32,000 nucleotides of DNA from Geobacter metallireducens GS-15 (GCF_000012925.1 NC_007517.1:2280001-2312000); one strand, 5' to 3'; positions 1 to 18,883 are shown, counted from the stretch's first letter. The notes: generated by a model from the letters alone, not told the origin. Numbers and translations: made by a program.

Positions 1-2
1 TC

Positions 3-581
3 CAACCCGAGAGCCCACTCTACCTCTACCCCCTCAAGACAATGGTTGTGGGCTCATTGCTGCTCTATTTCAGAAAACATTACCATGAAATCAGTATTAA
101 ACAAATCGTACGCCCGTCCATAGCCATATCCGCTATACTTGCAGGCATCATTGTTTTCATGCTCTGGATACAAATGGATTGGCTTTTGCCCTTCCAAAAA
201 CCGGCTCCAGGATACAATCCCAACCTCATACCCAACGATATCCACAGAATAGTATTGATCGCATTTCGGCTGGCAGGCGCCTCCATTGTAGTGCCGGTCA
301 TGGAGGAGATCTTCTGGAGGTCCTACATCGCACGGATGATCATAAATCAGGATTTTGAATCGGTACCGGTGGGGACATTCTCGTGGGCATCATTTCTGGG
401 GACGGTTCTGCTGTTTGGGCTTGAGCACCAGTTCATCATCGCCGGCTTGATGGCCGGCGCCATCTACCATGCTCTTCTATGCAGAACCAAAAGCATAGCT
501 GCGTGTATTACCGCCCACAGCGTGACCAATCTGCTCTTGGGAATCTTTGTCCTCAAGTCCGGAGCCTGGCGCTTCTGGTAG
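3..581 (+). CDS. CPBP-family (CAAX-protease-like) intramembrane glutamic protease of the kind found in PEP-CTERM/exosortase loci; 5' end probably outside the window
   Basis: The reading frame is open from base 3 to the ATG at 42, so the gene likely starts upstream. The product is a hydrophobic multi-TM protein with the three CPBP signature motifs seen directly: EEIFWR, FGLEH and HSVTN. Confidence 0.75.
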   Translation, partial: QPESPLYLYPLKTMVVGSLLLYFRKHYHEISIKQIVRPSIAISAILAGIIVFMLWIQMDWLLPFQKPAPGYNPNLIPNDIHRIVLIAFRLAGASIVVPVMEEIFWRSYIARMIINQDFESVPVGTFSWASFLGTVLLFGLEHQFIIAGLMAGAIYHALLCRTKSIAACITAHSVTNLLLGIFVLKSGAWRFW

Positions 582-645
582 CCACCCTTACTCCGACAGA
601 AGCTATCCGGACAGAACAAATTTTCCTCAGGGATATTTTCGTTGA

Positions 646-673
646 TTGAATCGAACAGAATGTGGTATATAAT
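646..673 (+). promoter_or_regulatory. sigma-70-type promoter candidate (TTGAAT - 16 nt - TATAAT)
   Basis: -35 TTGAAT at 646-651, a 16-nt spacer, and consensus -10 TATAAT at 668-673. It lies about 20 nt upstream of the riboswitch-like element. Confidence 0.45.
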
Positions 674-692
674 AAAATCGAATACATAGATA

Positions 693-768
693 GACGACAA
701 TACTCAACCATCCGTGAGGATGGGGCGGAAAGCCTATTGGGTCTCACCGAGACAGCCGGGTTGCCGAA
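693..768 (+). promoter_or_regulatory. GEMM-I-like cyclic-dinucleotide riboswitch aptamer (c-di-GMP-I class; possibly the cGAMP-type variant)
   Basis: Hairpin CCATCC-GTGA-GGATGG (708-723, GNRA loop) is followed by GGCGGAAAGCC (724-734). Next come hairpin GTCTC-ACCG-GAGAC (741-754) and CAGCCGGGTTGCCGA (753-767). The order and sequence resemble the Vibrio Vc2 aptamer segments CCAUUC-GAAA-GAGUGG / GACGCAAAGCC / UAGCGGGGUUACCGA as recalled from memory. The outer helix is CGACAA (695-700) / TTGCCG (761-766). Confidence 0.65.
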
Positions 769-804
769 ATATCTGACCAAAGATATAGGCCCCGGCTTTT
801 TTTT
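755..804 (+). terminator. intrinsic terminator acting as the riboswitch expression platform
   Basis: GCCGGG(755-760)..GCC(763-765)..ATATCT(769-774) pairs with AGATAT(781-786)..GGCCCCGGC(788-796), followed by T8 (797-804). The 5' arm overlaps the 3' strand of the aptamer. Confidence 0.7.
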
Positions 805-860
805 GTCCATTTTGGGGGCCGCACAAATTCAAGGAAGAACCGTCAAGGAGGACACCAATA

Positions 861-1673
861 ATGACAGGAAGACTTTCAAGGCTCTCTCCCGAACCGGGGC
901 TCGTCGATTACTTCAACCTTCTCTATTCAGTCATACCAGCTGAAACCGATGAACTCGTGAAGGAAACATTTCGTCTCAGGTATCAGGTTTACTGCATCGA
1001 AAACGAGTTTGAACCTCCTTCCGAAACTTCACAGCAAATGGAAACCGACGAATTCGATAAGAACTCGGTGCACTCCATCATTAAATACAACAAAACAGGG
1101 CACTCTATCGGTTCTGTCAGAATGGTTTTGCCGAATGAACGGGATCACACCCGCAGCTTCCCCATCCAGAAGATATGCAGCCACTCGATATTCACCGACA
1201 GAAAACTGTTCTCCCTTTACAGACCTATCGAAATATCACGGTTCTGTCTCTCTAAAGAACTGCGGACGATGGCAAAGCCATGCAAACATATGTGCGTTCA
1301 ACTGACATCCACAAGAGCCCCCTTTTCACCATCCTTGCTTAATCAGCATGGGCCAATACTTGGACTGATCAGAGGGCTTGTCCAGATGAGTAGCGAAAAT
1401 CATGTTACCCATTGGTTCGCCATTATGGAACCGTCACTTATCAGGTTACTGGCTAAGCTCGCGATATATTTCAAACCTGTAGGATCCCTCATCAACTATC
1501 ATGGCATGAGACAACCGTGCTATATAGAACTGTCAGAGTTATTGCGGAGGGTCTTTTCCGAGCAGCCACTGGTGTGGGAGGTATTGACCAACAAGGGGCA
1601 GTTTGACCTGAATCTCACCAACTACAATGAAAGCCTTTCTGGTTCCAATCTGAATAAAATATCACGATACTGA
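861..1673 (+). CDS. N-acyl amino acid synthase / acyltransferase, PEP-CTERM-exosortase-system-associated type (LuxI/GNAT-like)
   Basis: SD AAGGAGG at 845-851 sits 9 nt before the ATG. The FRLRYQVYCIENEF..., SVRMVLPN, EISRFCLSKE and INYHGMRQP blocks are typical of the autoinducer-synthase-like acyltransferase family found next to exosortase genes. It is a paralog of the 1732-2433 gene. Confidence 0.75.
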   Translation: MTGRLSRLSPEPGLVDYFNLLYSVIPAETDELVKETFRLRYQVYCIENEFEPPSETSQQMETDEFDKNSVHSIIKYNKTGHSIGSVRMVLPNERDHTRSFPIQKICSHSIFTDRKLFSLYRPIEISRFCLSKELRTMAKPCKHMCVQLTSTRAPFSPSLLNQHGPILGLIRGLVQMSSENHVTHWFAIMEPSLIRLLAKLAIYFKPVGSLINYHGMRQPCYIELSELLRRVFSEQPLVWEVLTNKGQFDLNLTNYNESLSGSNLNKISRY

Positions 1674-1731
1674 CACAAACCGGCTCTAATTTTTATTCGA
1701 GAACATCAACATCATGGCATAACCGGATTTA

Positions 1732-2433
1732 TCACAGCATGTTGCTTTCAATGAATTTAAAGCAATCAGGGTCTTTTCTCTCCATTCCCAGCCTTAGTTC
1801 CTGCAAATTACCAAGATACGGTGTCCTGAGCCCATGATAATCGACCTCTGGACCAACCGGATGATAAATCATTCCAACCCGCTTCAAAAGTATGTATAAT
1901 CCCCTCTTCATCGCAACATACCAATGAGATAACCCCATATTCACACTGCTCAACAAAAGAAATTTATAAAACTCATGTACATAATTGCACTTCCGCAGAT
2001 CGTGAACGACACCTGCTCCAGATGGCAACGTTGCGTCATATCCTACGAGAGCGTCGTCTTCAATCCTCTTTCGATACTCTTTGCTGATAGCTAGGCGCGA
2101 AACCTCGCCAATCTTCACATTTTCAACACCCCGTAACGCGTGCTCATGCATTTCAGAAACAATTTCACAGTGCTGAATCATGGGATAGCCCAGTGCATTG
2201 GGAAGGATAATGCGAGCGGTACCCACGATGGACTCATCTTCAGTGCACCTGATGATGAAGTGTTCTGAAAAGTCGTCATATTCATTGCGCTCCATGCCGT
2301 CAGGATAATCCTTGGGATCCTCGAATCTCCATTCTTCGCAATACACTTTGAAGCGCAATCTATAAACCTCTTCCATCGTTTCATCATATTTGTTGGAAGT
2401 TTTGTCAACACATTCGAAGGTAAATGGAATCAT
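1732..2433 (-). CDS. second N-acyl amino acid synthase paralog (PEP-CTERM/exosortase-associated acyltransferase family)
   Basis: YRLRFKVYCEEWRF, ARIILPN, EVSRLAISKEYR and VDYHGLRTP blocks align with the 861-1673 product. The start is trimmed to the ATG at 2433 (MIPFTFE...), because the longer track ORF runs into the IS630 end and the transposase start. Confidence 0.75.
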   Translation of the reverse strand: MIPFTFECVDKTSNKYDETMEEVYRLRFKVYCEEWRFEDPKDYPDGMERNEYDDFSEHFIIRCTEDESIVGTARIILPNALGYPMIQHCEIVSEMHEHALRGVENVKIGEVSRLAISKEYRKRIEDDALVGYDATLPSGAGVVHDLRKCNYVHEFYKFLLLSSVNMGLSHWYVAMKRGLYILLKRVGMIYHPVGPEVDYHGLRTPYLGNLQELRLGMERKDPDCFKFIESNML

Positions 2434-2496
2434 AAATGTCACCTGACGCGCTAAACATGCCGCTGATGGAACTCGATCCGGACAATCTTGTGCGGT

Positions 2497-3620
2497 TAGT
2501 TGTGTCAAATAAAATTGCGGTGTGGTATAGTGCCTCTCATGGCACGCACCCACGAACAATATGAATTGAAAGCAGAAGATCGTAAGTCATTGGAGTCAAT
2601 CCTACGATCTCCCAAGGCTGCCCAGAGTACTGTCTCTCGGGCGAAAGTGATTCTGTTTACTGCTGACGGCAAAACCGCTGAAGAGGTTGCTGTCGCCCTT
2701 GGCACAACCCCTCGTGCAGTCTACAGGTGGCGCAAACGTTTCAAGGATCATGGCCTTGAAGGCCTTCACGATCGACCACGTAGCGGACAACCGAAAAAGC
2801 TCTCCGAGAAAGTGGTTAAGGAAGTATTGCGGCTGTCTGTCGAATGCATCCCTCGAGAGGCGACCCATTGGAGCGTACGCCTGATGGCCAAGGCTGCCGG
2901 GATTACCACGTGGCAGGTTCGACAGATATGGGATGCCGCGGACCTGAAGCCCCATCGCCTCAAGACCTTTAAGATCAGCTATGATCCGCAGTTTGCCGAC
3001 AAAGTCATCGATGTCGTCGGCTTGTACATGAACCCTCCCGACAATGCTGTTGTCTTGGCGGTGGATGAGAAAACCCAGATTCAGGCACTGGACCGCACCC
3101 AACCGATGTTGCCAATGAAGCCCGGCCAGATCGAGCGCCGTACCCATGATTACAAACGCCATGGCACAACCAGCCTGTACGCTGCCTTCGATGTTCTGAC
3201 GGGGGAGGTGATCGGTCGAGTCACCAAAAGGCACCGAGCCAAAGAATTTCTCTATTTTCTGCGCCAGATTGACCGCTCAGTGCCCAAGGAGCTGGACCTC
3301 CATGTCATCTTGGATAACAGCAGTACTCACAAGACAGCGGAGGTCAACAAGTGGCTCGCCGAGCATCCTCGGTTCATTTTACATTTCAACCCCACCAGCG
3401 CTTCGTGGCTCAATGCCGTGGAAGGGTGGTTTGCCCAATTGGAACGGCGGGCGATTCACCGGGGTGTTTTCACCAGCGTCAAAGAGCTTCGCGACGAAAT
3501 TCAACGGTTCAACAAAGTGCATAATGCACATAGTGCCAAACCCTTCAAATGGACCCAAAAGCGCCAATGTCATCATTGAGGCAGTCAACAGAGCAAAGCA
3601 ATCATTAACTGACACGACTA
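2497..3620 (+). mobile_element. IS630-family insertion sequence (about 1.12 kb)
   Basis: A single DDE transposase ORF is flanked by imperfect terminal inverted repeats: TAGTTGTGTCAAATA (2497-2511) and the reverse complement of TAACTGACACGACTA (3606-3620), 12/15 identical. Both ends carry TA, consistent with the IS630 TA target. Confidence 0.8.
2539..3579 (+). CDS. IS630-family transposase
   Basis: There is an N-terminal HTH region (AEEVAVALGTTPRAVYRWRKRF). DDE-type blocks are VLAVDEKT, ILDNSSTHKT and SWLNAVEGWF. The start is taken at the ATG at 2539 (MARTHEQ...). Confidence 0.9.
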   Translation: MARTHEQYELKAEDRKSLESILRSPKAAQSTVSRAKVILFTADGKTAEEVAVALGTTPRAVYRWRKRFKDHGLEGLHDRPRSGQPKKLSEKVVKEVLRLSVECIPREATHWSVRLMAKAAGITTWQVRQIWDAADLKPHRLKTFKISYDPQFADKVIDVVGLYMNPPDNAVVLAVDEKTQIQALDRTQPMLPMKPGQIERRTHDYKRHGTTSLYAAFDVLTGEVIGRVTKRHRAKEFLYFLRQIDRSVPKELDLHVILDNSSTHKTAEVNKWLAEHPRFILHFNPTSASWLNAVEGWFAQLERRAIHRGVFTSVKELRDEIQRFNKVHNAHSAKPFKWTQKRQCHH

Positions 3621-3826
3621 ATCAAACGTGACACTAGATGAATGGACTTGAAACGTACCCAGAAATCAACGTATCGACAAAATGTTTTGATGACATAGTC
3701 GAGAACGTCGATTCAAGAACAAGATCACTCGTCAAGGGTTCCAACACTGACCAGGAGCTTCTCACAGAATCGGAAATTCTGTCATGCAGTTGAATAACGC
3801 CGAGTAGTCAGGTTGCTACCCGGCAA

Positions 3827-4630
3827 CTACATGATAATTTCTTCGTCAGCATGTTCCAGAATGTAGGCGATTCTCGTAAAGAACCGTGCCGCTGGAGCTC
3901 CTGCCATGATCCGCCGGTCGAAAATCAAACCAAGCGGAACAGTCCTGCGGGCCTCGACACGCCCATCAATCGCAATCGGCCGCTCCTTGACCCATCCAAA
4001 GGTTACCGTAAGGGGCCACAACATGTCTCCAATGAAAAAATCGATCCCATATTTGGCAGGAGAATTAACAAAACAGGCCCCGCCCCTATGTGTTGCCCAC
4101 ATACTTGGGAAAAGGCGTGGCAAACGGATGAGCCACTTACTAAAAAAAACGGGAACCTTACTAAGAAGTGAATAAAAAAGCCGCCACCGAGGATTGGAAT
4201 CTTCCGTTGCATTAGATAACTCTACCAACTCGCACGTGAGGTCGGCAAGGGATTTTTTATCACATTCCAGAATAGTAGCTGCCAAAACAACAGATTCGGC
4301 ATTTGGGACGTTGCGCTCAACAGCTACAGTAATATCAAACCGGTTAAATTGGACAAATCGCTTCCAGAACGAAAACCCGAGAAGAGCCCGGTTTGCATAA
4401 GGATGTTCCTGGAGAGCCATTGCAGCTGCCTTGATCACGAATGCCGTATATGAAGGCTTGACGGAAGTCTGCCTTAAAATGTTCTGGCGAAGTCTATCCA
4501 TTGCTGAAGCATCAATCTCCCGCACAAAGGTTACCTTATAGGCAGGCTTCATCTCGTCATTGAGAGTCCAAAATGCTTTTACAATCCGATTTGAAGATAG
4601 TATGGAGAATTTATTTTCTGAAGTATTCAT
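3827..4630 (-). CDS. 2-oxoacid dehydrogenase E2-type acyltransferase, catalytic domain only, with a degenerate active-site motif
   Basis: SYTAFVIKAAAMALQEHPYANRAL, GGACFVNSP and LGLIFDRRIMAGAPAARFF align to E2 catalytic-domain blocks. The start is taken at the ATG at 4630, 7 nt after the upstream glycosyltransferase stop. Confidence 0.7.
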   Translation of the reverse strand: MNTSENKFSILSSNRIVKAFWTLNDEMKPAYKVTFVREIDASAMDRLRQNILRQTSVKPSYTAFVIKAAAMALQEHPYANRALLGFSFWKRFVQFNRFDITVAVERNVPNAESVVLAATILECDKKSLADLTCELVELSNATEDSNPRWRLFYSLLSKVPVFFSKWLIRLPRLFPSMWATHRGGACFVNSPAKYGIDFFIGDMLWPLTVTFGWVKERPIAIDGRVEARRTVPLGLIFDRRIMAGAPAARFFTRIAYILEHADEEIIM

Positions 4631-4637
4631 GGAGACC

Positions 4638-5858
4638 CTATAAAATGCTATCAATGAGAATTTTGGCGCTGGTGGTTGCAGCATTATAAGATTTCAGGAC
4701 AGCTTGAATTTTTTGGGCACTATTTCGGAACGAATGATCAGACAGTACTTGTTTAACCGTGTCAGCAAGCAATGATGGCTTTTCCAAAAATTGTTTTAAG
4801 TCAAGTGACTTTCCAAATCCCATTGCCTCAACACGGCGCATATTGAATTTTTGATCAGGTATGGTTGGAATGCCGATCACTGGCTTGCCGTGAGAAAGAG
4901 CCTGGTATATGGTGCCATTGCCTCCATGACAAATTACAACATCACTACGCTCCATGACCAGATCGCCATCGAGGTAACTTTCCACATAAACCTTTCCTGG
5001 CATCGGCTTGAGCTCTGATGATTGGCCACCAGTGGTTACAATTGACGAAAAAAAAGATGTAGAGAGACTTGGGCCAAGTTTTGAAAAAAATTCGGAAACT
5101 CCCGTTGTGCCCATTGTCACATAAACCAGCGGAGATGAAGGAATATCAAGCGGCCACCATGCCGGGGGAGCAAGAACACTTTTCCAGGTTAATGGTCCCA
5201 CATAATGATAAGAAGCCGGCAGATTACGCGATGGGAAATACTCCGGAATATCCGCAAGGAGTGTTATATCCTTTCCAGTAAGGCAATTTGTCGCCGTAAC
5301 AGTTCGGTTTGTGTTCAATTCCCGGCTTAACCTCTTGAATACCTTCATAACATTGTCAAACAACTTCATTTCGAGAAAAAGATTCAGCCGGACCAATGCT
5401 TTCCAGATCATCGCATCGCGACTAATCAGCCAGGGGGGCATCCAATCAAAAAAAGGCACATAGGGGAGTGCTCGGTACTCCGTTGATGAAGCATTCACAA
5501 TAGCAGCGTGCCTGACATTGGTCAGATGAGTAGACAAGGGCGCACTGAATCTACCGTCTGAAAGCACCAAATCAGGTTTCAAGGACCTAATTACCTCTAT
5601 ATCTGCCGTCAGCATTTGCAACAGTTCGGCATCTTCAACAAATCGAAGCTTACCGGAACGAATGTTGCCAAAAAGCATCTCAGGATCAGGTTCATGAATG
5701 GGTACCACATCGAAGCCCTGCTGCGATACAAATGAAACCTTGGCGCTCTCGCCGGCAAAAACTACCTCATGGCCCATCCTTCGTAACTCAAGAGCGACTG
5801 CCAGAACGCGGCTGAGATGAGACAGTGTATGAGTATAGGGGAAGGCAAGAATTCGCAT
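4638..5858 (-). CDS. GT-B fold glycosyltransferase, family 1 (UDP-glycosyltransferase / MGT-like)
   Basis: The N-terminus MRILAFPYTHTLSHLSRVLAVALELRRMGHEV and the C-terminal nucleotide-sugar motif ICHGGNGTIYQALSHGKPVIGIPTIPDQ are typical of UGT/MGT-type GT1 enzymes. Confidence 0.85.
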   Translation of the reverse strand: MRILAFPYTHTLSHLSRVLAVALELRRMGHEVVFAGESAKVSFVSQQGFDVVPIHEPDPEMLFGNIRSGKLRFVEDAELLQMLTADIEVIRSLKPDLVLSDGRFSAPLSTHLTNVRHAAIVNASSTEYRALPYVPFFDWMPPWLISRDAMIWKALVRLNLFLEMKLFDNVMKVFKRLSRELNTNRTVTATNCLTGKDITLLADIPEYFPSRNLPASYHYVGPLTWKSVLAPPAWWPLDIPSSPLVYVTMGTTGVSEFFSKLGPSLSTSFFSSIVTTGGQSSELKPMPGKVYVESYLDGDLVMERSDVVICHGGNGTIYQALSHGKPVIGIPTIPDQKFNMRRVEAMGFGKSLDLKQFLEKPSLLADTVKQVLSDHSFRNSAQKIQAVLKSYNAATTSAKILIDSIL

Positions 5859-5897
5859 AATTTAAATTTATCATAGCACATAAATAGAAAATAAAAA

Positions 5898-5922
5898 GGG
5901 CTCTCAATCGAGAGCCCTTTTT
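5898..5922 (-). terminator. bidirectional intrinsic terminator downstream of the PEP-CTERM gene
   Basis: GGGCTCTC (5898-5905) / GAGAGCCC (5910-5917) form a hairpin flanked by A5 on the left and T5 on the right. This gives a U-tract on either strand. Confidence 0.6.
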
Positions 5923-5946
5923 ATTCCACAGAAACTGAAGAAAATG

Positions 5947-6915
5947 TTATTTTTTCGCCCTACGGCGCATGAAACCACCTGCAAGCAGAAGCCCAAGCCC
6001 GGTTAAAGCGAAAGTCGACGGTTCGGGAACAGCGGCAATTTGAAAACTGTTGTTGCCGTCAGCCTGGAAAATGATATCAGGGCCATTTATACCATTCACT
6101 GCGCCGAGTGCAGGAACAACGTTAGCCCCTGCGGATACGTCCCAGAACAGCCTGGACGGATCAGCTTGCAGGAAGGGTAGATTGTTCGATGTATTGAAAT
6201 TAAGGGACATAATAATAAAGTCCAAATTAAGGGGATTGGTAATAACAACCTCATCCTTATTGATCTGATCTACTGCGATAGTGACAGCGGTGGATCCTGT
6301 ACCATAAATGGTTTGTTGGCCCGCCCAATCATCACCTAAATTCTGATCAAGGAGACCAGTGTTGGCTTCGGTGCTAAAATTGCTCCGAGTAACGCCTACA
6401 ACCCTGCCCGACAGAAATTCATTGCCGTCATTAAAGCCGGTTCCAGCGAGGTCACTGGCATTAATGGCAGATTTATAGAATTTTACATAATTGGGCAAAG
6501 TTGGGTCAAAGAAGAAACTGGCGTTTGCTGGCACCGGACCCGCAATGGCACTTGTATACCCTCTTTCACCAAACGCAATCATTGCTGTTATTTCGTACGT
6601 TGAATTCAAGCCGGAACCAAGAATAGGTTTATTGGTTGCGTTATTATAGTTACCCAGTATTGCCTGATAATAAAGATTAAAATGTGTCTGCAAGGCAGGA
6701 TTTACTGCAGGGTCGGTAGCAGGATTTCCAGTACCATCTGTTACTGCAAGCGGTACAGCATTTACACCTAGGGCGTTACCCACGGACCAGTCGAGTTGGG
6801 CTACCGGCTGGCTCACTCCCGCAAAATCGATGGTTGTCGTTGCAGCAAATGCATTACTTGCAGCGCAGGTAGCAAACAATGCTGCTGTGATGGCTACGTT
6901 CTTTACAGTTTTCAT
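5947..6915 (-). CDS. PEP-CTERM sorting-domain protein (secreted, exosortase substrate)
   Basis: The signal peptide is MKTVKNVAITAALFATCAASNAFA. The C-terminus VPEPSTFALTGLGLLLAGGFMRRRAKK gives PEP motif, TM helix and Arg cluster. A strong SD GGAGAGGAGGAG precedes the ATG. Confidence 0.9.
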   Translation of the reverse strand: MKTVKNVAITAALFATCAASNAFAATTTIDFAGVSQPVAQLDWSVGNALGVNAVPLAVTDGTGNPATDPAVNPALQTHFNLYYQAILGNYNNATNKPILGSGLNSTYEITAMIAFGERGYTSAIAGPVPANASFFFDPTLPNYVKFYKSAINASDLAGTGFNDGNEFLSGRVVGVTRSNFSTEANTGLLDQNLGDDWAGQQTIYGTGSTAVTIAVDQINKDEVVITNPLNLDFIIMSLNFNTSNNLPFLQADPSRLFWDVSAGANVVPALGAVNGINGPDIIFQADGNNSFQIAAVPEPSTFALTGLGLLLAGGFMRRRAKK

Positions 6916-7062
6916 CTTTCTCCTCCTCTCCTTAACTACGCTATTAATATTAACTCGGTTATTCTCGCCGTCACAACCAACCCACCTACCTCCTCCTTTC
7001 CATTTAAACTCTTATTATCTTCAGATTAATCAGATCTTCGCCTCAGCGATAAACTAAAAAAC

Positions 7063-7078
7063 AGCAATTAACATGCCA
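7063..7078 (-). promoter_or_regulatory. sigma-54 (-24/-12) promoter for the PEP-CTERM gene
   Basis: The minus strand reads TGGCAT-GTTAA-TTGCT, with exact GG/GC spacing against the consensus TGGCAC-N5-TTGCW. It lies about 150 nt upstream of the ATG at 6915. Confidence 0.6.
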
Positions 7079-7575
7079 CAAATAATTTGCTGCAAATATC
7101 GATAGTTGCACAATCCAACCATCCCCTCCCCCAACAAAGTGTAAATTTTATCGACAAACCGCCCAAACAATTTTACACAACGCCTCGAACACGGGGACAG
7201 GATCTCTCGTGAATACAAATCATTCTCGCAAGTCTCGCTAATTGCGAATCACATTGAAGCTTAGGCATCCAGAAATCACCTTACGCTAGCCAACTAGCCA
7301 AATCCTAAACATTACATTAACCCTTATTACCCTGTTGGAAATCTTTACACCTACGCTATCCCACTTTGTAATTCCCTTGAATAATCACATAGTTACAAAC
7401 GGTTTAAAAATTGCATGCCTTATGGCATTGCAATTATCGGGAGATTAACGATTCCGCAATAATTTATGGTTATCAAATCATATTTATATTTCGTTAAAGG
7501 AAGGAGGCGATTTATCCCGGCAATGAATAATGTAGCTTCCATTTAAAGTTTGATATTCTAAGAAAGGAGAGGATT

Positions 7576-10500
7576 ATGCGAAAATGTGCATACTATTTTT
7601 TACTAATTGCAACATTGTTATGTTTAAGCACTATTCAAACGCACGCTGCGTCTGGCACGTTGCAATTCAAGGACACTAGACTTGGCAACATCACAGTGTC
7701 AGTATTTGATTGGTCGCCGGATAACGGTCTGGCGGTAGGGGTGGTACCATTACCGACTTCACCGGCTTCATCTGATTTCAATCTGCTTCTGCATAGTTTT
7801 CTTACTAATTTTAAAGGACCCAATGGAATAATAGCAGGAAGTGGATTGAACGCTGATTATGAAATTACTGTTGTTATGGGTGCTACCCAAACAGGATTTA
7901 CAGATTCGAGCACCATTCCTGTTAATACGAATTTCAAATTAAGTTCTAATAAGACTATTAATTATTTCAAAGTATATTACGATACAAATTTAAATTCCAA
8001 CTCATTAACTGGCCAAGGATACAATGACGGCATTCTCCTAATGAGTGGAACCATCAGCAATGACAATGGCAATTTTTCTATTACAACTAATGCTACAGTC
8101 CCTTTAGATAATTTTTTGAACAATAATTATCCTACTGCGACCACTTTACAAGGCGGCGGTGGCTATGCAGCTTCTGTAGCTATTGATTATTACAATCCAG
8201 AATTTATAACTTTCACATCTCCGAATGCACGTTTATCTTTCGCCACTAACACCAATGAAGTGACCCCTTTCAATCAAGCCGACCCATCTGCTGCTTTTTA
8301 TAATGGAACCGGCTTTCAAACCCCAATCAGAGGTGCCGGCAACGTTAATGGCATGCCAGCAACACAAGGTAAGGCTGATTTCCAGTTCCAGGCTGATGCT
8401 AACAGTAGCGTCCAGTACGAGGCATGCACCGGCTCCATAGGTGACATAGTCTGGCACGACCTGAACCGCAACGGCATCCAGGATCCCGGCGAACCAGGTA
8501 TAGACGGAGTGCCGGTCAGTATCTACAAAGCCTCAGATAACAGCCTTATCACTACGACAACCACTGGTGTCGGCCCGCTGAACCAGCATGGCTACTACCA
8601 GTTCACCGGTCTGTGCGCCGGCAACTACAAGGTAGTTGTCGACGAGACGAAACTGCCGACAGGATTTACCCCAACAACGTCGAACGTGGGAAGTGACCCT
8701 GCGATCGACAGCAACGGCAGCCCGGCTTCCGTCACGCTTCCCACTGACTCCAGTTCCGATCAGACCATCGATTTCGGCTATGTCTCTCCCTGTACCGGTT
8801 CTATCGGTGACTTTGTCTGGCTGGACATGAATCGTGACGGCATTCAGAACGACGGTCCGAACGCCGGCATTAACGGCGCAACAATCAGGCTCTATAACGA
8901 CACCCTTACGACGGTGCTGGCAACAACGACAAGCGGTCCCAACGGTTATTATCAGTTCTCAGGACTCTGTGCCGGAACATATCAAGTGGTTGTCGATGAA
9001 ACCACTCTGCCACCGGGACTGCTGCAGACAGGCTCCCTACAGGGCACTGACCGCGCGATCGACAGCAACGGCAGCCCTGCCTCCGTGACTCTGCCCACTG
9101 ACTCCAGCTCGGATCAGACCATTGACTTTGGTTATGTCGCCCGCTGCACCGGCACAATCGGAGATTATGTGTGGCTGGACCAGAACTTCAACAGCCTTCA
9201 GGATGCCGGTGAACCGGGAATCGATGGTGTAACCATCAATCTGCGGAAGGCATCCGACAACAGCCTCATTACAACGACAACAACTGGCTCCAATGGCTTC
9301 TATCAATTTACTGGCCTCTGTGCCGGCGACTACTTGGTGGAATCCACTCCTCCGCCGGGCTTGAGTCGTGTACCACTTTGCAGCGCTGACCAAACGATCG
9401 GAAATGACAGTAATTGTTCACCAGCGCAGGTGACTCTGCCGGCTGACAACTCCTCAAACCAGACCATTGATTTCGGTTTTGAGAGTGCCTGTACCGGGAC
9501 GATTGGCGACTTCGTCTGGGAAGACGCAAACCGCAACGGGATTCAGGACGCTGGAGAACAGGGAATCAATGGTGTAACCCTCAATCTGCGGAGAATATCA
9601 GACTACAGCGTTATTGCTACCACGACCACCAATACCGTCGGTTACTACCAGTTTAACGGACTCTGTGCAGGCAGCTACAAAGTCGAGGCTATTACACCAA
9701 CTGGCTACATGCCGACCCCATCATGTAGCTCTGATCAGACGATTGCAAATGACAGCAACTGCAATCCAGCACAGGTGGATCTGCCTTCTAATTTTAGTCC
9801 CAATCAGACCATCGACTTCGGCTTCTTCACCCCCTGCTCCGGATCGCTTGGCGACTTTGTCTGGAACGACCTGAACCACAACGGTATCCAGGATGCCAAC
9901 GAGCCGGGCATCGCCGGCGTTCCGGTAACCATCACCGGCACCAACATCTACGGCACCGCCGTCAATACGACGGTCAACACCAACGCCAGCGGCATGTACA
10001 CCTTCACCGGCCTGTGCCAGGGAACCTACACCGTTACCGTGCCGACCCCTGCGGGCTACACTCCGACGCTGACCGGCAAGGGTACCACCGCCACCGACAG
10101 CAACGGCAGCCCCGCTTCCGTGACGCTGCCCGCTGACAATTCCTCGGATCAGACCATCGACTTCGGCTTCTTCACCCCCTGCTCCGGATCGATTGGCGAC
10201 TTTGTCTGGAACGACCTGAACCACAACGGCGTTCAGGATGCCAACGAACCGGGCATTGCCGGCGTTCCGGTAACCATCACCGGCACCAACATCTACGGCA
10301 CTGCCGTCAGCATGACGGTCAACACCAACGCCAGCGGCATGTATCAGTTCACCGGCCTGTGCCAGGGAACCTACACCGTTACCGTGCCGACCCCTGCGGG
10401 CTACACTCCGACGCTGACCGGCAAGGGTACCACCGCCACCGACAGCAACGGCAGCCCCGCAACCGTGGTCCTGGCCGCTGACAATTCCTCGGATCAGACC

Positions 10501-13500
10501 ATCGACTTCGGCTTCTTCACCCCCTGCTCCGGATCGATTGGCGACTTTGTCTGGAACGACCTGAACCACAACGGTATCCAGGATGCCAACGAACCGGGCA
10601 TCGCCGGCGTTCCCGTCACCATCACCGGCACCAACATCTACGGCACTGCCGTCAGCATGACGGTCAACACCAACGCCAGCGGCATGTACACCTTCACCGG
10701 CCTGTGCCAGGGAACCTACACCGTCACCGTGCCGACCCCTGCGGGATTCACTCCGACGCTGACCGGCAAGGGTACCACCGCTACCGACAGCAACGGCAGC
10801 CCCGCAACCGTGGTCCTGGCCGCTGACAATTCCTCGGATCAGACCATCGACTTCGGATTCTTCACCCCCTGCTCCGGATCGATTGGCGACTTTGTCTGGA
10901 ACGACCTGAACCACAACGGTATCCAGGATGCCAACGAACCGGGCATCGCCGGCGTTCCCGTCACCATCACCGGCACCAACATCTACGGCACTACCGTCAG
11001 CATGACGGTCAACACCAACGCCAGCGGCATGTACACCTTCACCGGCCTGTGCCAGGGAACCTACACCGTCACCGTGCCGACCCCTGCGGGATTCACTCCG
11101 ACGCTGACCGGCAAGGGTACCACCGCTACTGACAGCAACGGCAGCCCCGCAACCGTGGTCCTGGCCGCTGACAATTCCTCGGATCAGACCATCGACTTCG
11201 GATTCTTCACCCCCACGCCCTCCATCAAAATCATAAAATACACCAACGGTGATGATGCCGATCTTCCCACCGGTCCCATGATCCCCGTTGGCGGCTTGGT
11301 CACGTGGACGTACGTGGTCACCAACACCGGCAATGTGGATCTCGCCAACGTTGTCGTCACCGACGACAAGCTCGGCGCCATTTGCACCATCGGTCCCCTG
11401 GCTACTGGTGCCTCACAGACCTGCACCAAGACCGGTACGGCCGTTATGGGCCAGTATGCCAACACAGGTACCGTTACGGGCACGTTCGGTACTACGACCG
11501 TTACCGACCAGAATCCAAGCCACTACTTCGGTGTCAAGGCGAGCATCGACATCCGCAAACAGGCCGAAGGTCCCGATACCCGGAACTTCCCTGCCGGATC
11601 AAATGTTCCCTTTGAAATCGTTGTCACCAACACCGGCAACGTGGCACTGAACAACGTCGTAGTTACCGATCAGATGGTACCGGCATGCAATGCAACCATC
11701 GGCACCCTTAACCCAGGGCAGATTTATACCTACACCTGTACTGCCCCCATGGTGCTCAATAACTTTACGAACACCGCCTGCACAGAAGGAATGGCCGGCA
11801 CCACCACCGTTACCGATTGCGATGATTCCACGGTAGTGGTCACCACTCCCAAGATTAGCATTAAGAAGTACACCAACGGCGACGACGCCGATTTGGCACC
11901 CGGTCCCTACATCCCGGTTGGCGGCGAAGTCAAGTGGGAGTACGTAGTCACCAACACGGGCAATGTGGATCTCACCAACGTTGTCGTCACCGACGACAAG
12001 CTCGGCGCCATCTGCACCATTGGTCCCTTGGCGGCAGGCGCTTCCCAGACCTGCACCAAGACCGGCACTGCCGTTATGGGCCAGTACGCCAACATGGGTA
12101 CCGTTACCGGTCAGTACAACGGCACTACCGTAACCGATCAGAATCCGAGCCACTACTTCGGTGTCAAGGCAAGTATCGACATCCGTAAGCAGGCCGAAGG
12201 TCCTGATACCCGAAGCTTCCCTGCCGGATCAGATGTTCCATTTGAAATCGTTGTCACCAACACCGGCAACGTAGCATTGAACAATGTCAAAGTTACCGAT
12301 CAGTTGGTGCCGGCATGCAACACGACCATCGGAACGTTAAACCCAGGGCAGGTTTATTCCTACACCTGCACTGCTCCGATGGTACTCAACGGCTTCACAA
12401 ACACCGCATGTACGGAGGGGATGGCCGGGGCCGTCGTGGTAACTGATTGTGACGATTCTACAGTCACGGTTACTACTGCAAAGATTGACATCGCAAAATA
12501 CGTTTCCATCGATGGCAAAACCTGGTTCCACACGGACAGCAGTGATGTCCTCAAGGTCGCGCTGTGTGCCACCTGCGAAGAGGAATACGACAAGGAGCAC
12601 TGCGACTATAACCACGACAACAAGTGCGATGAGCGAGACGTCGATTACTGCAAGTCCAACAAGTACGAGTGCGACAGGCACGACTCCGAGCATGGCAGCA
12701 ACAAGCGCAAGCACCGCTGCGATGACAGCTCGAACAAGTCCTACTGCGAGGACAAGGCAGAGGATGCGCACGAGCGGGATCACAGCGACTACAACAACGA
12801 TGGCAAGTGTGATGAGCGCGACATCGATTACTGCAGGTACAACAAATCCACCTGCGACCGGCACGATGCCGACCATCACAGCACTACGCGGTCTTACAGG
12901 TGCGACGACAGTTACAGCAAGACCACGTGCGAAAGCAAGAAGAAGGATGAAGAGAAGTCTGACAAGGAGCGCAGCGACTACAACCGCGACGGCAAGTGTG
13001 ACGAGCGCGACGTAGCCTACTGCCAAAACAACAAGTCATCCTGTGACTCGTTTGACAGGGACCGTGGCAACCTCAAGCGGCGCTTCCGGTGTGACGACAG
13101 CACCAGCGGCGGTAAGTGCGAGGATATGGCACGCACAGAGCACGACAAGGATGACGGAGATTACAACAACGATGGCAAGTGCGACGAGCGCGACATCGAC
13201 TACTGCAAGTACAACCGCTCTGCTTGCGATCAGCACGACAAGAACCATGGCAGCGGCAAGCGCACCTACCGCTGCGACGACAGCTCGAACGAGTCATCGT
13301 GCGAGGACAGGGTCCGGAAGGAACATGACCACGACCGCAGTGACTATGATCATGACGGGAAGCTCGACGAGGACGACATCAAATACTGCCAGGAAAACAA
13401 GGATCGATGCGTCAAGCAAGACCGTGACTACAGCAACTGCAAACGCACCTACCGGTGCGACGACAGCGAACACAGGGAAGATTGCGGCTACTACGCCCAG

Positions 13501-15390
13501 CGTGAGCATGACAAGGATGACAGCGACTACAATCACGACGGCAAGTGCGACGAGCGTGACATCGACTACTGCAAGAACGAGCAGGAGCGGTGCGACGAGC
13601 ACGACAGGGACCATAAGCTGACTAAACGTACCTATCGGTGCGACGACAGCTCTTACAAGGATTCATGTGGTTCCTACGCGCAACGGGAGCATGACAAGGA
13701 CCGCAGCGACTACAACCGCGATGGCAAGCGCGACGAGCGCGACATCGACTACTGCAAGGGGAACGATGAGGAGTGCATCAAGCACGACAAGGGGCACGGC
13801 AACTTCACCCGCTCATACCGGTGCGATGAGAGCTCCAACAAAACCCTTTGCGAATCGACCCGGTATTCGCAAAACAAGAGTGAGAAGGACGACAGCGACT
13901 ACAATCGCGACGGCAAGTGCGACGAGCGCGACATCAGCTACTGCAAGTACAATCGCGACGCTTGCGACAAGTTCGATAGTGATCGCGGCAACAGGAAACG
14001 GACCTATCGTTGCGACGACAGCTCCTACAAGACCTCGTGCCAGGATAAGGCCGAGTATGAGCATGATAGGGACCACGCCGACTACAACCGCGATGGCAAG
14101 TGCGACGAGCGCGACATCGACAATTGCAAGAACAGTCCCTACGGATGCGATGATCATGACAGGGATCACGGCGATTCCAAGCGGCACTATCGCTGCGACG
14201 ACAGTTATGACAAGACGCGGTGTGAAGAGCGTTCAAGAGAGGAACGTGATCGGGAATCCAGCTGCAGCGGAAGTGGCAGTTATCCCTCACCGGCATGCGG
14301 CAAGGTCTACTTCAAGTACCTCGTGACCAATACCGGATCAACTACCTTGACTAACCTCACCCTCACCGACGACAAGAACAGCGTGAGCAGTTGCACCATC
14401 CCGGCAGGGCTGAATCCCGACGGTTCCTTCAGCTGCATAATCGGGCCCCTGCCGGCCAAGGCCGGACTCCAGGTAAACACCGCTACGGCAACAGGAACAT
14501 ATGGCGGCGTAACCACTACTGATACCGACAAGGCCTACTATTACGGGTGCGACGGAACCGCACCGAAATCCCCCGGTTACTGGAAGAACCATCCCGAGGC
14601 CTGGCCGGTGGAATCAATCACCATCGGTGGCAAGACGTATACAAAGGCCCAGGCCATCAGCCTCATGAACACTCCGGTCAGCGGAGACAAGACCTACACC
14701 CTGTTCAAGGCACTGGTTGCTGCTAAACTGGATGCCATGGGTTGCGGCGACTCATCCTGCGTAACCGACACGATCGCCAAGTCCGATGCCTGGATGGCCC
14801 TGCACCCCGTGGGAAGCGGAGTTGCCGGTGATAGTTATGCCTGGAAGCAGGCAGAACCGTGGTATCTGATACTTGACGATTACATCAACGGGAAGCTGGT
14901 GTGCGGAGGGAGCAACACCTGTACTCCTCCGCCTCCTCCCGCACCAACCTGCGGTCAATGCAGTGGCGGTACAACGAAGCTGGCACTCAAGTACACTGGT
15001 GATTGCCTTGCAAAGGTCGAGGTAAAAGACAGCAACGGCCGGACGCTGTTCTCCAGCACCGTTGCACCGGACAGCAGCTTCAACTTTACCGGCATGTCCA
15101 CCAATGGCACCATGGGACAATACGTGAAGGTCTACGTCAACGGCAGCTACAAGGCTACGATCTACACGGATTGCTCCAAACCGATCTATCCAGGGATGGG
15201 AATTGGTTCCTTCAACGTTGTGGAGGGGTATAGCCTGAATGGCGGGAAGTTCTGCCGGGTATCGTCATCATCCTGCACAAGCTATGACGACGATCACTAC
15301 AGCAGTGACTACTGCGGCTCGCACGACGGAGAATCAAGCTGCCTCAACTTCTTCGACCACGAAAGCAGTGATAGTCATCACGATGATTGA
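7576..15390 (+). CDS. giant secreted repeat protein (2604 aa), adhesin-like
   Basis: A 7.8-kb uninterrupted ORF with SD AAAGGAGAGG before the ATG and the signal peptide ...STIQTHA/AS. The domain order is an N-terminal module shared with the PEP-CTERM protein, 8 SdrD-B-like repeats, 4 DUF11 domains, 9 Asp/Cys-rich repeats inside a fifth DUF11, and C-terminal Cys-containing modules. GxIGDxVWxDxNxNGxQD repeats match the SdrD B-like domain, and VTNTGNVxLxNVxVTD blocks match DUF11. No PEP-CTERM is present at the C-terminus. Confidence 0.9.
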   Translation: MRKCAYYFLLIATLLCLSTIQTHAASGTLQFKDTRLGNITVSVFDWSPDNGLAVGVVPLPTSPASSDFNLLLHSFLTNFKGPNGIIAGSGLNADYEITVVMGATQTGFTDSSTIPVNTNFKLSSNKTINYFKVYYDTNLNSNSLTGQGYNDGILLMSGTISNDNGNFSITTNATVPLDNFLNNNYPTATTLQGGGGYAASVAIDYYNPEFITFTSPNARLSFATNTNEVTPFNQADPSAAFYNGTGFQTPIRGAGNVNGMPATQGKADFQFQADANSSVQYEACTGSIGDIVWHDLNRNGIQDPGEPGIDGVPVSIYKASDNSLITTTTTGVGPLNQHGYYQFTGLCAGNYKVVVDETKLPTGFTPTTSNVGSDPAIDSNGSPASVTLPTDSSSDQTIDFGYVSPCTGSIGDFVWLDMNRDGIQNDGPNAGINGATIRLYNDTLTTVLATTTSGPNGYYQFSGLCAGTYQVVVDETTLPPGLLQTGSLQGTDRAIDSNGSPASVTLPTDSSSDQTIDFGYVARCTGTIGDYVWLDQNFNSLQDAGEPGIDGVTINLRKASDNSLITTTTTGSNGFYQFTGLCAGDYLVESTPPPGLSRVPLCSADQTIGNDSNCSPAQVTLPADNSSNQTIDFGFESACTGTIGDFVWEDANRNGIQDAGEQGINGVTLNLRRISDYSVIATTTTNTVGYYQFNGLCAGSYKVEAITPTGYMPTPSCSSDQTIANDSNCNPAQVDLPSNFSPNQTIDFGFFTPCSGSLGDFVWNDLNHNGIQDANEPGIAGVPVTITGTNIYGTAVNTTVNTNASGMYTFTGLCQGTYTVTVPTPAGYTPTLTGKGTTATDSNGSPASVTLPADNSSDQTIDFGFFTPCSGSIGDFVWNDLNHNGVQDANEPGIAGVPVTITGTNIYGTAVSMTVNTNASGMYQFTGLCQGTYTVTVPTPAGYTPTLTGKGTTATDSNGSPATVVLAADNSSDQTIDFGFFTPCSGSIGDFVWNDLNHNGIQDANEPGIAGVPVTITGTNIYGTAVSMTVNTNASGMYTFTGLCQGTYTVTVPTPAGFTPTLTGKGTTATDSNGSPATVVLAADNSSDQTIDFGFFTPCSGSIGDFVWNDLNHNGIQDANEPGIAGVPVTITGTNIYGTTVSMTVNTNASGMYTFTGLCQGTYTVTVPTPAGFTPTLTGKGTTATDSNGSPATVVLAADNSSDQTIDFGFFTPTPSIKIIKYTNGDDADLPTGPMIPVGGLVTWTYVVTNTGNVDLANVVVTDDKLGAICTIGPLATGASQTCTKTGTAVMGQYANTGTVTGTFGTTTVTDQNPSHYFGVKASIDIRKQAEGPDTRNFPAGSNVPFEIVVTNTGNVALNNVVVTDQMVPACNATIGTLNPGQIYTYTCTAPMVLNNFTNTACTEGMAGTTTVTDCDDSTVVVTTPKISIKKYTNGDDADLAPGPYIPVGGEVKWEYVVTNTGNVDLTNVVVTDDKLGAICTIGPLAAGASQTCTKTGTAVMGQYANMGTVTGQYNGTTVTDQNPSHYFGVKASIDIRKQAEGPDTRSFPAGSDVPFEIVVTNTGNVALNNVKVTDQLVPACNTTIGTLNPGQVYSYTCTAPMVLNGFTNTACTEGMAGAVVVTDCDDSTVTVTTAKIDIAKYVSIDGKTWFHTDSSDVLKVALCATCEEEYDKEHCDYNHDNKCDERDVDYCKSNKYECDRHDSEHGSNKRKHRCDDSSNKSYCEDKAEDAHERDHSDYNNDGKCDERDIDYCRYNKSTCDRHDADHHSTTRSYRCDDSYSKTTCESKKKDEEKSDKERSDYNRDGKCDERDVAYCQNNKSSCDSFDRDRGNLKRRFRCDDSTSGGKCEDMARTEHDKDDGDYNNDGKCDERDIDYCKYNRSACDQHDKNHGSGKRTYRCDDSSNESSCEDRVRKEHDHDRSDYDHDGKLDEDDIKYCQENKDRCVKQDRDYSNCKRTYRCDDSEHREDCGYYAQREHDKDDSDYNHDGKCDERDIDYCKNEQERCDEHDRDHKLTKRTYRCDDSSYKDSCGSYAQREHDKDRSDYNRDGKRDERDIDYCKGNDEECIKHDKGHGNFTRSYRCDESSNKTLCESTRYSQNKSEKDDSDYNRDGKCDERDISYCKYNRDACDKFDSDRGNRKRTYRCDDSSYKTSCQDKAEYEHDRDHADYNRDGKCDERDIDNCKNSPYGCDDHDRDHGDSKRHYRCDDSYDKTRCEERSREERDRESSCSGSGSYPSPACGKVYFKYLVTNTGSTTLTNLTLTDDKNSVSSCTIPAGLNPDGSFSCIIGPLPAKAGLQVNTATATGTYGGVTTTDTDKAYYYGCDGTAPKSPGYWKNHPEAWPVESITIGGKTYTKAQAISLMNTPVSGDKTYTLFKALVAAKLDAMGCGDSSCVTDTIAKSDAWMALHPVGSGVAGDSYAWKQAEPWYLILDDYINGKLVCGGSNTCTPPPPPAPTCGQCSGGTTKLALKYTGDCLAKVEVKDSNGRTLFSSTVAPDSSFNFTGMSTNGTMGQYVKVYVNGSYKATIYTDCSKPIYPGMGIGSFNVVEGYSLNGGKFCRVSSSSCTSYDDDHYSSDYCGSHDGESSCLNFFDHESSDSHHDD
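8425..11214 (+). repeat. eight tandem SdrD-B-like domain repeats (366, 354, then 6 x 345 bp), in frame within the giant gene
   Basis: Units start at 8425, 8791, 9145, 9490, 9835, 10180, 10525 and 10870. Each begins C(T/S)G(S/T)(I/L)GD and ends DQTIDFG(F/Y). Confidence 0.85.
9835..11214 (+). repeat. four nearly identical 345-bp tandem copies (the last four SdrD-B-like units)
   Basis: Period is exactly 345 bp. The protein units differ at only a handful of residues, for example AVNTTV/AVSMTV/TVSMTV, GYTPT/GFTPT and ASVTLPA/ATVVLAA. Confidence 0.9.
11218..12477 (+). repeat. 2 x 630-bp duplication encoding two pairs of DUF11 domains
   Basis: PSIKIIKYTNGDDADL... (from 11218) and PKISIKKYTNGDDADL... 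(from 11848) are 210-aa units that are highly similar over their full length. Confidence 0.85.
12604..14262 (+). repeat. nine tandem 61-63-aa Asp/Cys/His/Lys/Arg-rich repeats (183-189 bp each)
   Basis: The hand-derived consensus is DYNxDGKCDERDIDYCKxNxxxCDxHDxDHGxxKRTYRCDDSSxKxxCE..(E/R/D-rich). Unit lengths were counted as 61,63,61,61,61,61,63,61,61 aa. The ninth unit starts at 14080, as predicted from the sum of the preceding units. Confidence 0.9.
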
Positions 15391-18008: not shown

Positions 18009-18010
18009 GA

Positions 18011-18883
18011 CTAATCCTCCGACTTCATGAGCAGGTTTTCCATGATGAGGCGACGCTTTTTCTTCTGGGATGGACTCTTCGCCCCCAATGCTATTTTCCC
18101 CATTTTCACCTTATTAAGAAGCATGTCGAATTGAAGATAACAGGGGATGGGGCGAAGCTCTCCCTTACCGGTCAGGATCTTCACGATTTCGGTCGCCACA
18201 AGTGAAGCGGCCAGGGTGCATGCTGGAGATACCGCCGGTCCGGTACGCCGCTTGAAGCTCACCCGGCTGGCATCCATGTAGGAAAGATGATAGGGATTCG
18301 GAGTCAAGCCGGCGGCAAAAGCTGCAATTTTCTCCAGCGGAGGCGTCTGATCATCAATGCCGAAGTAGTCGTCGAAACTCATCCCTTCAGGGTCAAAAAC
18401 CTGCAACGTGGCGCCGAAACCGAGGGGAGCAGCAGTCAGCGCATAGATGCCTTTTGCACGGCAACTGTTGAAGATGAGGCGACGCATATCTATCTCAAAA
18501 AAGTCTATGCTATCCACATAGACATCGACGCCATCAAGGAATGCATTAATGTTGTCTTCCGTAACACCCTCTTCCATGACGCGAACTTCGGCATTCGGGT
18601 TGATATCCTTCACCATCTCCGCCAGCACCTGCGCCTTATTGCGGTTAAGGGTGCTGTGGAATGCCCCAAATTGCCTGCTTATGTTTACCACGTCGAACGA
18701 ATCATGGTCGGCTATAGTGAAACAGCCAACGCCAAGCCGAGCCAGAGTAAGTACATGAATACCCCCTACCCCACCCGCGCCAGCCACCGCAACTCGTGAG
18801 GCCAGTAGCCGTTTTTGTTCCTCAACAGTAAGAAGACCTATGTTCCGCGCAAACTCATTTCTTATGAGGCTATCACTGTCCAT
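18011..18883 (-). CDS. ThiF/MoeB/HesA-family E1-like adenylyltransferase
   Basis: The nucleotide-binding loop is VAVAGAGGVGGIHVLTLARLGVG, followed by DHDSFDVVNISRQ. No CxxC zinc pairs are visible. The stop lies 2 nt before the nitroreductase ATG. Confidence 0.85.
   Translation of the reverse strand: MDSDSLIRNEFARNIGLLTVEEQKRLLASRVAVAGAGGVGGIHVLTLARLGVGCFTIADHDSFDVVNISRQFGAFHSTLNRNKAQVLAEMVKDINPNAEVRVMEEGVTEDNINAFLDGVDVYVDSIDFFEIDMRRLIFNSCRAKGIYALTAAPLGFGATLQVFDPEGMSFDDYFGIDDQTPPLEKIAAFAAGLTPNPYHLSYMDASRVSFKRRTGPAVSPACTLAASLVATEIVKILTGKGELRPIPCYLQFDMLLNKVKMGKIALGAKSPSQKKKRRLIMENLLMKSED

Follow-up and report, generated by a model that had tools for sequence, protein, structure and literature searches.

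Which signal governs the acyltransferase gene Gmet_2037 of Geobacter metallireducens GS-15, a gene annotated as part of the PEP-CTERM/exosortase system, and in which direction does that signal act? This question was raised by an initial annotation of a 32,000-nucleotide (nt) stretch of the chromosome (NC_007517.1:2280001-2312000; hereafter the window, whose positions serve as coordinates throughout), which placed a candidate GEMM-I-like riboswitch, together with a promoter and an overlapping terminator, in front of this gene. In the intergenic region concerned (582-860) a promoter, an aptamer, a terminator and a Shine-Dalgarno sequence, all on the plus strand, can be read directly from the DNA. 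We show below that the element was published in 2009 as Gmet_R3013, and we consider it probable, with good confidence, that it is one of 16 paralogous GEMM-Ib riboswitches, in which an aptamer bound to cGAMP (3',3'-cyclic GMP-AMP) would block the terminator and switch Gmet_2037 on.

A GEMM-I aptamer with an adenine at position 20

To assign the element to a family, the whole window was scanned with Rfam 15 at curated thresholds. The sole match, well beyond chance, was to RF01051 (c-di-GMP-I; c-di-GMP, cyclic diguanylate) at 692-768 on the plus strand. It scores 43.3 bits, where the gathering score is 35, has an E-value of 1.9e-05 over the whole window and covers the full model (1-87), which bears out the GEMM-I assignment made initially. 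A permissive Rfam scan revealed no second GEMM copy in the 32-kb window. Together with its extended P1 helix the aptamer spans 688-774. According to the pair list, P1 joins 688-692 to 770-774 and 695-696 to 765-766; P2 is the hairpin CCAUCC-GUGA-GGAUGG at 708-723, capped by a GNRA tetraloop and present as first noticed; and P3 (731-762) consists of 731-734/759-762, 738-740/756-758 and 741-743/751-753, with an AG bulge formed by A754 and G755. The segments GGCGGAAAGCC (724-734) and CAGCCGGGTTGCCGA (753-767) were likewise read from the sequence. A further hairpin of the initial annotation, which forms upper P3, is found at 741-753 (GTCTC-ACC-GAGAC, 13 nt), but its loop is ACC and not ACCG, one G having been counted twice. 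Every helix can form, and P1, the GNRA-capped P2, P3 and the equivalents of A47 and C92, which characterize GEMM-I, are all present; the G that GEMM-I has at position 20 is replaced by an A, which is what sets the Ib subclass apart.

The identity of the pocket nucleotides comes from covariance-model alignments, which the initial annotation had proposed as a check on the positions corresponding to G20, A47 and C92 of Vc2, the riboswitch from Vibrio cholerae (PDB 3IRW). These positions are taken by A702, A729 and C764, respectively. All three occupy them in the alignments to both RF01051 and RF03167, the latter being the c-di-GMP-I-GGC variant, so that the A at the G20 equivalent, originally obtained by a naive alignment, stands. 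Both alignments also agree in equating pair 21-46 of Vc2 with C703-G728 and pair 22-45 with U704-G727, and the deviations from the canonical core described at the outset, namely CTCAACC for GGCAAACC and GCGGAAAGCC for ACGCAAAGCC, are seen in the model alignments. In Vc2, A47 intercalates between the two bases of the ligand. Rfam columns were converted to Vc2 numbering by means of the Vc2 sequence and of what PMC6140456 says about G20 and C92, the latter being the Watson-Crick partner of the ligand guanine. Position 20, A or G, tells GEMM-Ib (cGAMP) from GEMM-I (c-di-GMP) riboswitches (PMC6140456; PMC6456294), and A20 with A47 and C92 kept, the definition of GEMM-Ib taken from PMC6140456, is what we find in A702, A729 and C764. 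When compared with Vc2, therefore, the element has the same three-helix fold, GNRA-capped P2, A47, C92 and Rfam family (RF01051), whereas G20 of Vc2 is an A, G21-C46 and C22-G45 are C-G and U-G, P3 is much shorter (4 nt where the Rfam consensus has 16), and the ligand, c-di-GMP in Vc2, is predicted to be cGAMP.

Identity with a published element

Table S4 of the 2009 genome paper (PMC2700814) names the element Gmet_R3013, one of 16 near-identical copies, and Figure S7 prints it at chromosome positions 2280689-2280806 with a stated length of 118. Positions 689-806 of the window are identical to the printed sequence at 117 of 117 letters and agree with it in length (118), the single letter missing from the print being a G of a GGGG run that was lost in machine reading of the PDF. 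The same paper entered all 16 under 'predicted regulatory short RNAs', stated that the sequence overlaps predicted cyclic-diguanylate riboswitches, and already proposed riboswitch control of Gmet_2037; Gmet_2037 and Gmet_2038 were described there as adjacent, low in G+C, weakly similar to autoinducer synthetases and possibly acquired recently. The open reading frames (ORFs) of the window follow the published order, that is, Gmet_2037, 2038, 2040 (2-oxoacid dehydrogenase acyltransferase), 2041 (GT28-related) and 2042.

The element and the regulatory role proposed for it have been in the literature since 2009, and Gmet_R3013 is an ordinary member of a known riboswitch subclass. The GEMM-Ib (cGAMP) class itself has been established since 2015. 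The suggestion of the initial annotation that the connection was new is consequently not sustained, riboswitch control of Gmet_2037 having been proposed under the name Gmet_R3013 in PMC2700814. The term exosortase is not used in that paper, and therefore the link between a cyclic dinucleotide and a PEP-CTERM acyltransferase is a known pairing relabelled, not a new pairing. In addition, c-di-GMP riboswitches have been described before genes for PEP-CTERM proteins in a Methylophaga strain (PMC12530212).

Promoter, terminator and switching direction

Upstream of the aptamer lies the sigma-70-type promoter that had been proposed (646-673), with its -35 hexamer TTGAAT at 646-651, a 16-nt spacer and its -10 hexamer TATAAT at 668-673. 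A promoter scan found agreement with the consensus at 10 of 12 positions, and the hexamers are largely kept in the two closest species, G. grbiciae (locus L011) and G. hydrogenophilus (L002). Judging from the position of this promoter, transcription is predicted to start near 680. The 131-nt leader folds with a z-score of -4.3 against shuffles. Farther downstream, a Shine-Dalgarno sequence, AAGGAGG, was read at 845-851, nine nt before the ATG of Gmet_2037 (861-863). An ORF that overlaps the leader (662-943, 93 amino acids) was taken as a chance ORF, because its reading frame crosses both aptamer and terminator.

The intrinsic terminator occupies 754-804. Its outer stem pairs 754-760 with 791-797 and then 763-765 with 788-790, an inner hairpin obtained by folding joins 769-774 to 781-786, and a U8 tract follows at 797-804; the region 750-812 folds at -23.3 kcal/mol (z = -3.9). 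Eleven nt are paired in both the aptamer and the terminator, namely, 756-760 in the 3' strand of P3, and 765 together with 770-774 in the 3' strand of P1. G763 and the ligand-contacting C764, which in the terminator pairs with G789, likewise fall inside its stem. At the level of the sequence, these shared nucleotides support the mutually exclusive aptamer and terminator, and the ON design, that the initial annotation had put forward, in agreement with the in vivo behaviour of Geobacter GEMM-Ib riboswitches (PMC6456294; PMC8835794). Nearest-neighbour energies are -38.5 kcal/mol for the terminator conformer and -17.5 kcal/mol for the secondary structure of the aptamer; the terminator being far more stable, termination would be the default and the ligand would have to act during transcription.

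The geometry of aptamer and terminator, taken together with data from G. sulfurreducens, suggests an ON switch. In that species deletion of gacA reduces expression behind all GEMM-Ib riboswitches, with more termination close to the recognition site (PMC6456294), and the leader of Gs1761 terminates without cGAMP (PMC8835794). Terminators that reuse the 3' strand of the aptamer are kept in all six loci that were folded (L001-L006), and a change in P3 from GGGUUG to GGGUCG is accompanied by a change of the terminator 3' arm to CGACCC.

A mechanism can be proposed in which transcription would begin from the promoter at 646-673 and the nascent leader could form the three-helix aptamer at 688-774, with A702, A729 and C764 in its pocket. 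Upon binding of cGAMP, which would be supplied by the Hypr GGDEF enzyme GacA (Gmet_1914), the aptamer would retain P1 and the 3' strand of P3, the terminator would be blocked, and RNA polymerase would continue into Gmet_2037. In the ligand-free leader, the more stable terminator (754-804) would capture 754-765 and 769-774, and transcription would stop at the U8 tract.

Predicted ligand of Gmet_R3013

Our best reading is that Gmet_R3013 responds to cGAMP, as predicted from its pocket and by analogy with Gm0970 (Gmet_R3005), a validated GEMM-Ib riboswitch of the same genome to which it is close. Gm0970 binds cGAMP with a dissociation constant of about 16 nM and a selectivity of about 1600-fold over c-di-GMP (PMC8835794), and its A20G variant turns selective for c-di-GMP (PMC6456294). 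The aptamer at 693-769 is 85.7% identical to that of Gm0970, 11 of 77 positions being different. The motif AAUACU, and hence A20, is common to 16 of 16 G. metallireducens copies; since machine reading of Figure S7 lost one or two letters in 13 of the 16 rows, quantitative comparison was limited to the three complete rows. The synthase that makes cGAMP in this organism, GacA, is encoded by Gmet_1914 (PMC6456294), a gene outside the window. The earlier pointer towards cGAMP rather than c-di-GMP is thus strengthened by A702 and by the 86% identity to Gm0970 (PMC8835794; PMC6456294), the ligand itself remaining a prediction.

The likeness between the two riboswitches extends to the GEMM-Ib backbone, to a terminator that overlaps the aptamer, and to the identity of AAUACU with A20, C21-G46, U22-G45, A47 and C92. 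They differ in that A23 and A43 of Gm0970 are replaced by C (C705) and G (G725), the tetraloop GCGA by GUGA, and the P3 loop is changed. They also differ in what lies behind them, an XRE regulator and pilMNOPQ (Gmet_0970-0975) in the case of Gm0970 and an acyltransferase of family TIGR03694 in that of Gmet_R3013, and in that affinity and selectivity were measured for Gm0970 whereas the ligand of Gmet_R3013 is predicted. A second reference is Gs1761 (GSUR3008, pgcA, PDB 4YAZ), which is also GEMM-Ib, has an A at the G20 equivalent (A14 in its own numbering), and switches transcription ON by way of a terminator, in vivo in dependence on GacA. Gs1761 belongs to another species, G. sulfurreducens, and controls an extracellular cytochrome; it is set beside Gmet_R3013 by description and not by sequence.

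Conservation of the aptamer before acyltransferase homologs

To place the element in an evolutionary context, we retrieved the leaders of acyltransferase homologs from G. hydrogenophilus, G. grbiciae, G. argillaceus, several Geobacter or Desulfuromonadales genome bins, two metagenome contigs and four loci of other lineages. An aptamer is found 100-360 nt upstream of the TIGR03694 homolog in 11 of 11 Geobacter-like loci (the window included), with protein identities down to 41%, and is absent before the homolog in all four other loci, from Acidobacteriota, Tistlia and two more. What this analysis modestly adds is the strict conservation of the pairing of aptamer and acyltransferase in Geobacter-like genomes. 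Against RF01051, the scores of ten related leaders range from 42.9 to 54 bits, all above the gathering score, and the 12 aptamers compared show no variation at A20, A47 and C92 or in the C-G and U-G pairs. In an alignment of 12 leaders to which distant ones had been added (A2), 94% of cells are paired and four pairs are compensatory; three of the six P2 pairs are changed on both sides in L012b, L013 and L014. The covariation score of A2 was reached by none of 500 shuffles, and slid controls gave zero or one such pairs. Independent support for the fold comes mainly from the Rfam model score.

Three further observations concern these loci. At junction positions 23 and 43 (705 and 725), which adjoin the ligand pocket, C/G is found in the window, L001, L002 and L011, and A/A in the other eight leaders; the C/G sequences form one close group (aptamers 95-97% identical), and the pattern has no statistical weight. 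A metagenome contig (L012, 63-3780) encodes three TIGR03694 paralogs, two of them preceded by GEMM-Ib aptamers, which score 49.4 bits (1142-1218) and 29.5 bits (2350-2426) against RF03167, the weaker one having a non-GNRA loop, GCGC. In another TIGR03694 locus (L017, 2517-3065), devoid of a riboswitch, the acyltransferase is followed by a gene with a weak match to PilZ, a c-di-GMP-binding domain, and the connection to cyclic dinucleotides could here be made by a protein.

Evaluation of alternative explanations

Several points weigh against a cGAMP-selective ON switch as the function of Gmet_R3013. The literature surveyed, in which two 2015 PNAS screens of Geobacter GEMM-I riboswitches were not covered, holds no data on ligand binding, termination, in vivo response or enzyme product for Gmet_R3013. 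A number of A20 riboswitches found in nature accept cGAMP and c-di-GMP alike (PMC6140456), so that A20 is no guarantee of selectivity; moreover, two of the 11 differences from Gm0970, C705 and G725, are situated in the junction beside the pocket. G. sulfurreducens, whose cGAMP regulon was measured, has no ortholog of Gmet_2037 (PMC2700814, Table S1), and an in vivo response of Gmet_2037 to cGAMP is accordingly a prediction. As to the fold, no compensatory changes occur among the ten closest sequences (A1), for which shuffles equal the observed values, and related sequences can beat covariation shuffles without any structure, so that the covariation must be regarded as thin. Lastly, a consensus terminator scan of 400-1200 reported no terminator; we attribute this to the bipartite stem of the one at 754-804, whose inner hairpin exceeds the loop limit of the scan.

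Some of these points lead to a different reading, which we regard as unlikely, namely, that the riboswitch is functional but bispecific or c-di-GMP-responsive in the cell, such that Gmet_2037 would follow c-di-GMP, a biofilm signal, as well or instead. Natural bispecific GEMM-Ib members provide a precedent, c-di-GMP can pair with protonated A20 (PMC6140456), and the OmcST riboswitch of G. sulfurreducens has been reported to respond to both ligands (PMC6456294). C705 and G725, where Gm0970 has two adenines, and the PEP-CTERM/exopolysaccharide context, a classic c-di-GMP theme as in Methylophaga (PMC12530212), point the same way. Against this stand the invariance of A20 in 12 of 12 orthologous leaders and the behaviour of the Gm0970 backbone, in which A20 confers cGAMP selectivity and G20 is needed for selectivity towards c-di-GMP. 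The possibility that Gmet_R3013 is a decayed or structural repeat, which terminates constitutively or is read through, or else an RNA acting in trans or as a ligand sponge rather than a cis-regulator, appears very improbable. The cataloguing of the 16 copies in 2009 as short RNAs (PMC2700814), a terminator of far greater stability than the secondary structure of the aptamer, and a low-G+C gene cluster that may have been transferred in would all fit it. Yet aptamer, pocket and terminator are kept before the homologs in 11 of 11 loci, down to protein identities of 41-48%, which argues that purifying selection maintains their placement in cis; the score exceeds the Rfam gathering threshold, and the element has a promoter directly upstream and a strong Shine-Dalgarno sequence with a start codon directly downstream. 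Scarcely credible, finally, is that the element is an orphan c-di-GMP-I-GGC variant sensing another ligand, in spite of RF03167 being the top clan member in E-value scans, its score being 44.4 bits for Gmet_R3013 and reaching 54.8 bits among relatives. Every one of these scores is below the gathering score of 59, and the consensus of RF03167 has G at the equivalents of positions 20 and 47, at both of which Gmet_R3013 has A (A702 and A729), and membership was accordingly rejected. The higher score of RF03167 most likely reflects a common short-P3 backbone and not the variant pocket; we read 'GGC' in its name as three pocket nucleotides, an interpretation of our own.

The regulated gene and its neighborhood

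Returning to the cGAMP-responsive riboswitch as the preferred explanation, the gene that it would control, Gmet_2037 (861-1673, plus strand), encodes a PEP-CTERM/exosortase system-associated acyltransferase. The protein, which is 100% identical to ABB32266.1 / WP_004512914.1, matches TIGR03694 with 295.8 bits (cut-off 111.95) over profile positions 2-240 of 241, in accordance with the exosortase-associated gene of the initial annotation, and has Pfam matches to Acetyltransf_5 and FeeM (31.6 bits for FeeM against a cut-off of 27). A sequence search of the PDB gave nothing significant (E = 0.12). We built an AlphaFold2 model from 29 homologs, with a mean predicted local distance difference test score (pLDDT) of 84.7 and a predicted template modelling score (pTM) of 0.83, and compared it with the PDB by Foldseek. 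The best matches were the acyl-homoserine lactone (AHL) synthase TofI (3p2h), the N-acyl amino acid synthase FeeM (2g0b) and LasI (1ro5), with E-values of about 1e-7 and TM-scores of 0.6-0.7 on the targets; among the top hits TM-scores were moderate, 0.41-0.51 on the query and 0.55-0.79 on the targets. The model thus gives a sound assignment to a GNAT-type fold like those of FeeM and the LuxI-type AHL synthases, from which Gmet_2037 differs in having 11-19% identity and about 70 additional residues. N-acyl amino acid synthase activity, together with the substrate that it would imply, is putative, resemblance to FeeM and AHL synthases being at the level of the fold only. For the members of TIGR03694 no product has, to our knowledge, been described. 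With a convergent gene (1732-2559) behind it, Gmet_2037 is probably monocistronic and most likely the only gene under the control of the riboswitch.

The convergent gene, Gmet_2038 (1732-2559, minus strand), is a paralog that also belongs to TIGR03694 and is 29% identical to Gmet_2037; public gene calls give it 233 amino acids, equivalent to 1732-2433, and the window-wide Rfam scan found no riboswitch before it. The stop codons of the two convergent genes are 58 nt apart (1673-1732), and a simple scan of 1600-1800 found neither a terminator nor a promoter between them; transcription permitted by the riboswitch might run antisense into Gmet_2038. An IS630-family transposase gene (2500-3579, plus strand, 285 bits) lies between Gmet_2038 and the gene for the E2-like acyltransferase, overlapping the longest Gmet_2038 ORF. 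The transposase is missing from the otherwise identical gene order of G. hydrogenophilus (L002) and G. grbiciae (L011), which makes it an insertion just upstream of the Gmet_2038 start, where it may affect the Gmet_2038 promoter.

Gmet_2037 stands at the edge of a PEP-CTERM locus, as is apparent on both sides of the leader. Upstream, a gene for a PEP-CTERM-associated CAAX protease-related protein (42-581, plus strand; TIGR03008, 277.4 bits, cut-off 81.05) stops 65 nt before the promoter, and a PepA-like PEP-CTERM protein is encoded about 4 kb downstream (5947-6915, minus strand); no exosortase gene was found among the scanned ORFs of the window. A domain of about 260 amino acids (32% identity, E = 1e-29) is common to the PepA-like protein and to the N-terminus of a protein of 2604 amino acids that is encoded divergently from it (7576-15390, plus strand), the larger protein also comprising eight SdrD B-like repeats, five DUF7507 repeats, a long Cys/Asp/Arg-rich repeat region and a weak dockerin-like match. 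Further along, adjacent genes at 16953-18883 (minus strand) encode a ThiF-like adenylyltransferase and a nitroreductase-like protein, corresponding to the halves of Rv1355c / PRK14851-type proteins, and in locus L015 (2434-3927) a ThiF plus nitroreductase protein is found directly behind the TIGR03694 homolog, which hints at a functional link between these enzymes. The ORF at 19699-20721 (plus strand; TIGR04257, 344 bits) codes for a multihaem cytochrome that has four trihaem domains of the c7 type, and the Rfam scan of the window found no GEMM element upstream of it, unlike many Geobacter cytochrome genes.

The G+C content is 42-50% in positions 1-8000, which hold the acyltransferases, the glycosyltransferase and the PEP-CTERM protein, and 51-65% in 8001-32000. 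The low G+C of the first 8 kb is consistent with the 2009 view of a recent acquisition of Gmet_2037 and Gmet_2038. Despite the low-G+C locus, Gmet_R3013 resembles the 15 other copies of the genome.

Possible implications for cGAMP signalling in Geobacteraceae

As a discovery the element matters little, given that it is an Rfam match at default thresholds and was interpreted in 2009 for the same gene. Its interest resides in the cGAMP regulon, whose known members so far are genes for cytochromes, pili and surface polysaccharides. We put forward tentatively, as a possibility rather than an expectation, that the cGAMP (GacA) regulon of Geobacteraceae includes a conserved, riboswitch-gated FeeM/LuxI-like PEP-CTERM/exosortase acyltransferase, a pairing that would have been invisible to regulon studies in G. 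sulfurreducens because that species is without the gene. If this is true, cGAMP would turn on the making of an N-acyl amino acid or of some related lipid, and this lipid could serve as a diffusible signal or could modify surface proteins sorted by exosortase while the cells attach to metal oxides. The conserved riboswitch ties TIGR03694 enzymes to cyclic-dinucleotide signalling in Geobacter-like genomes, and it offers a simple experimental handle on both the product and the timing of a PEP-CTERM-associated acyltransferase.

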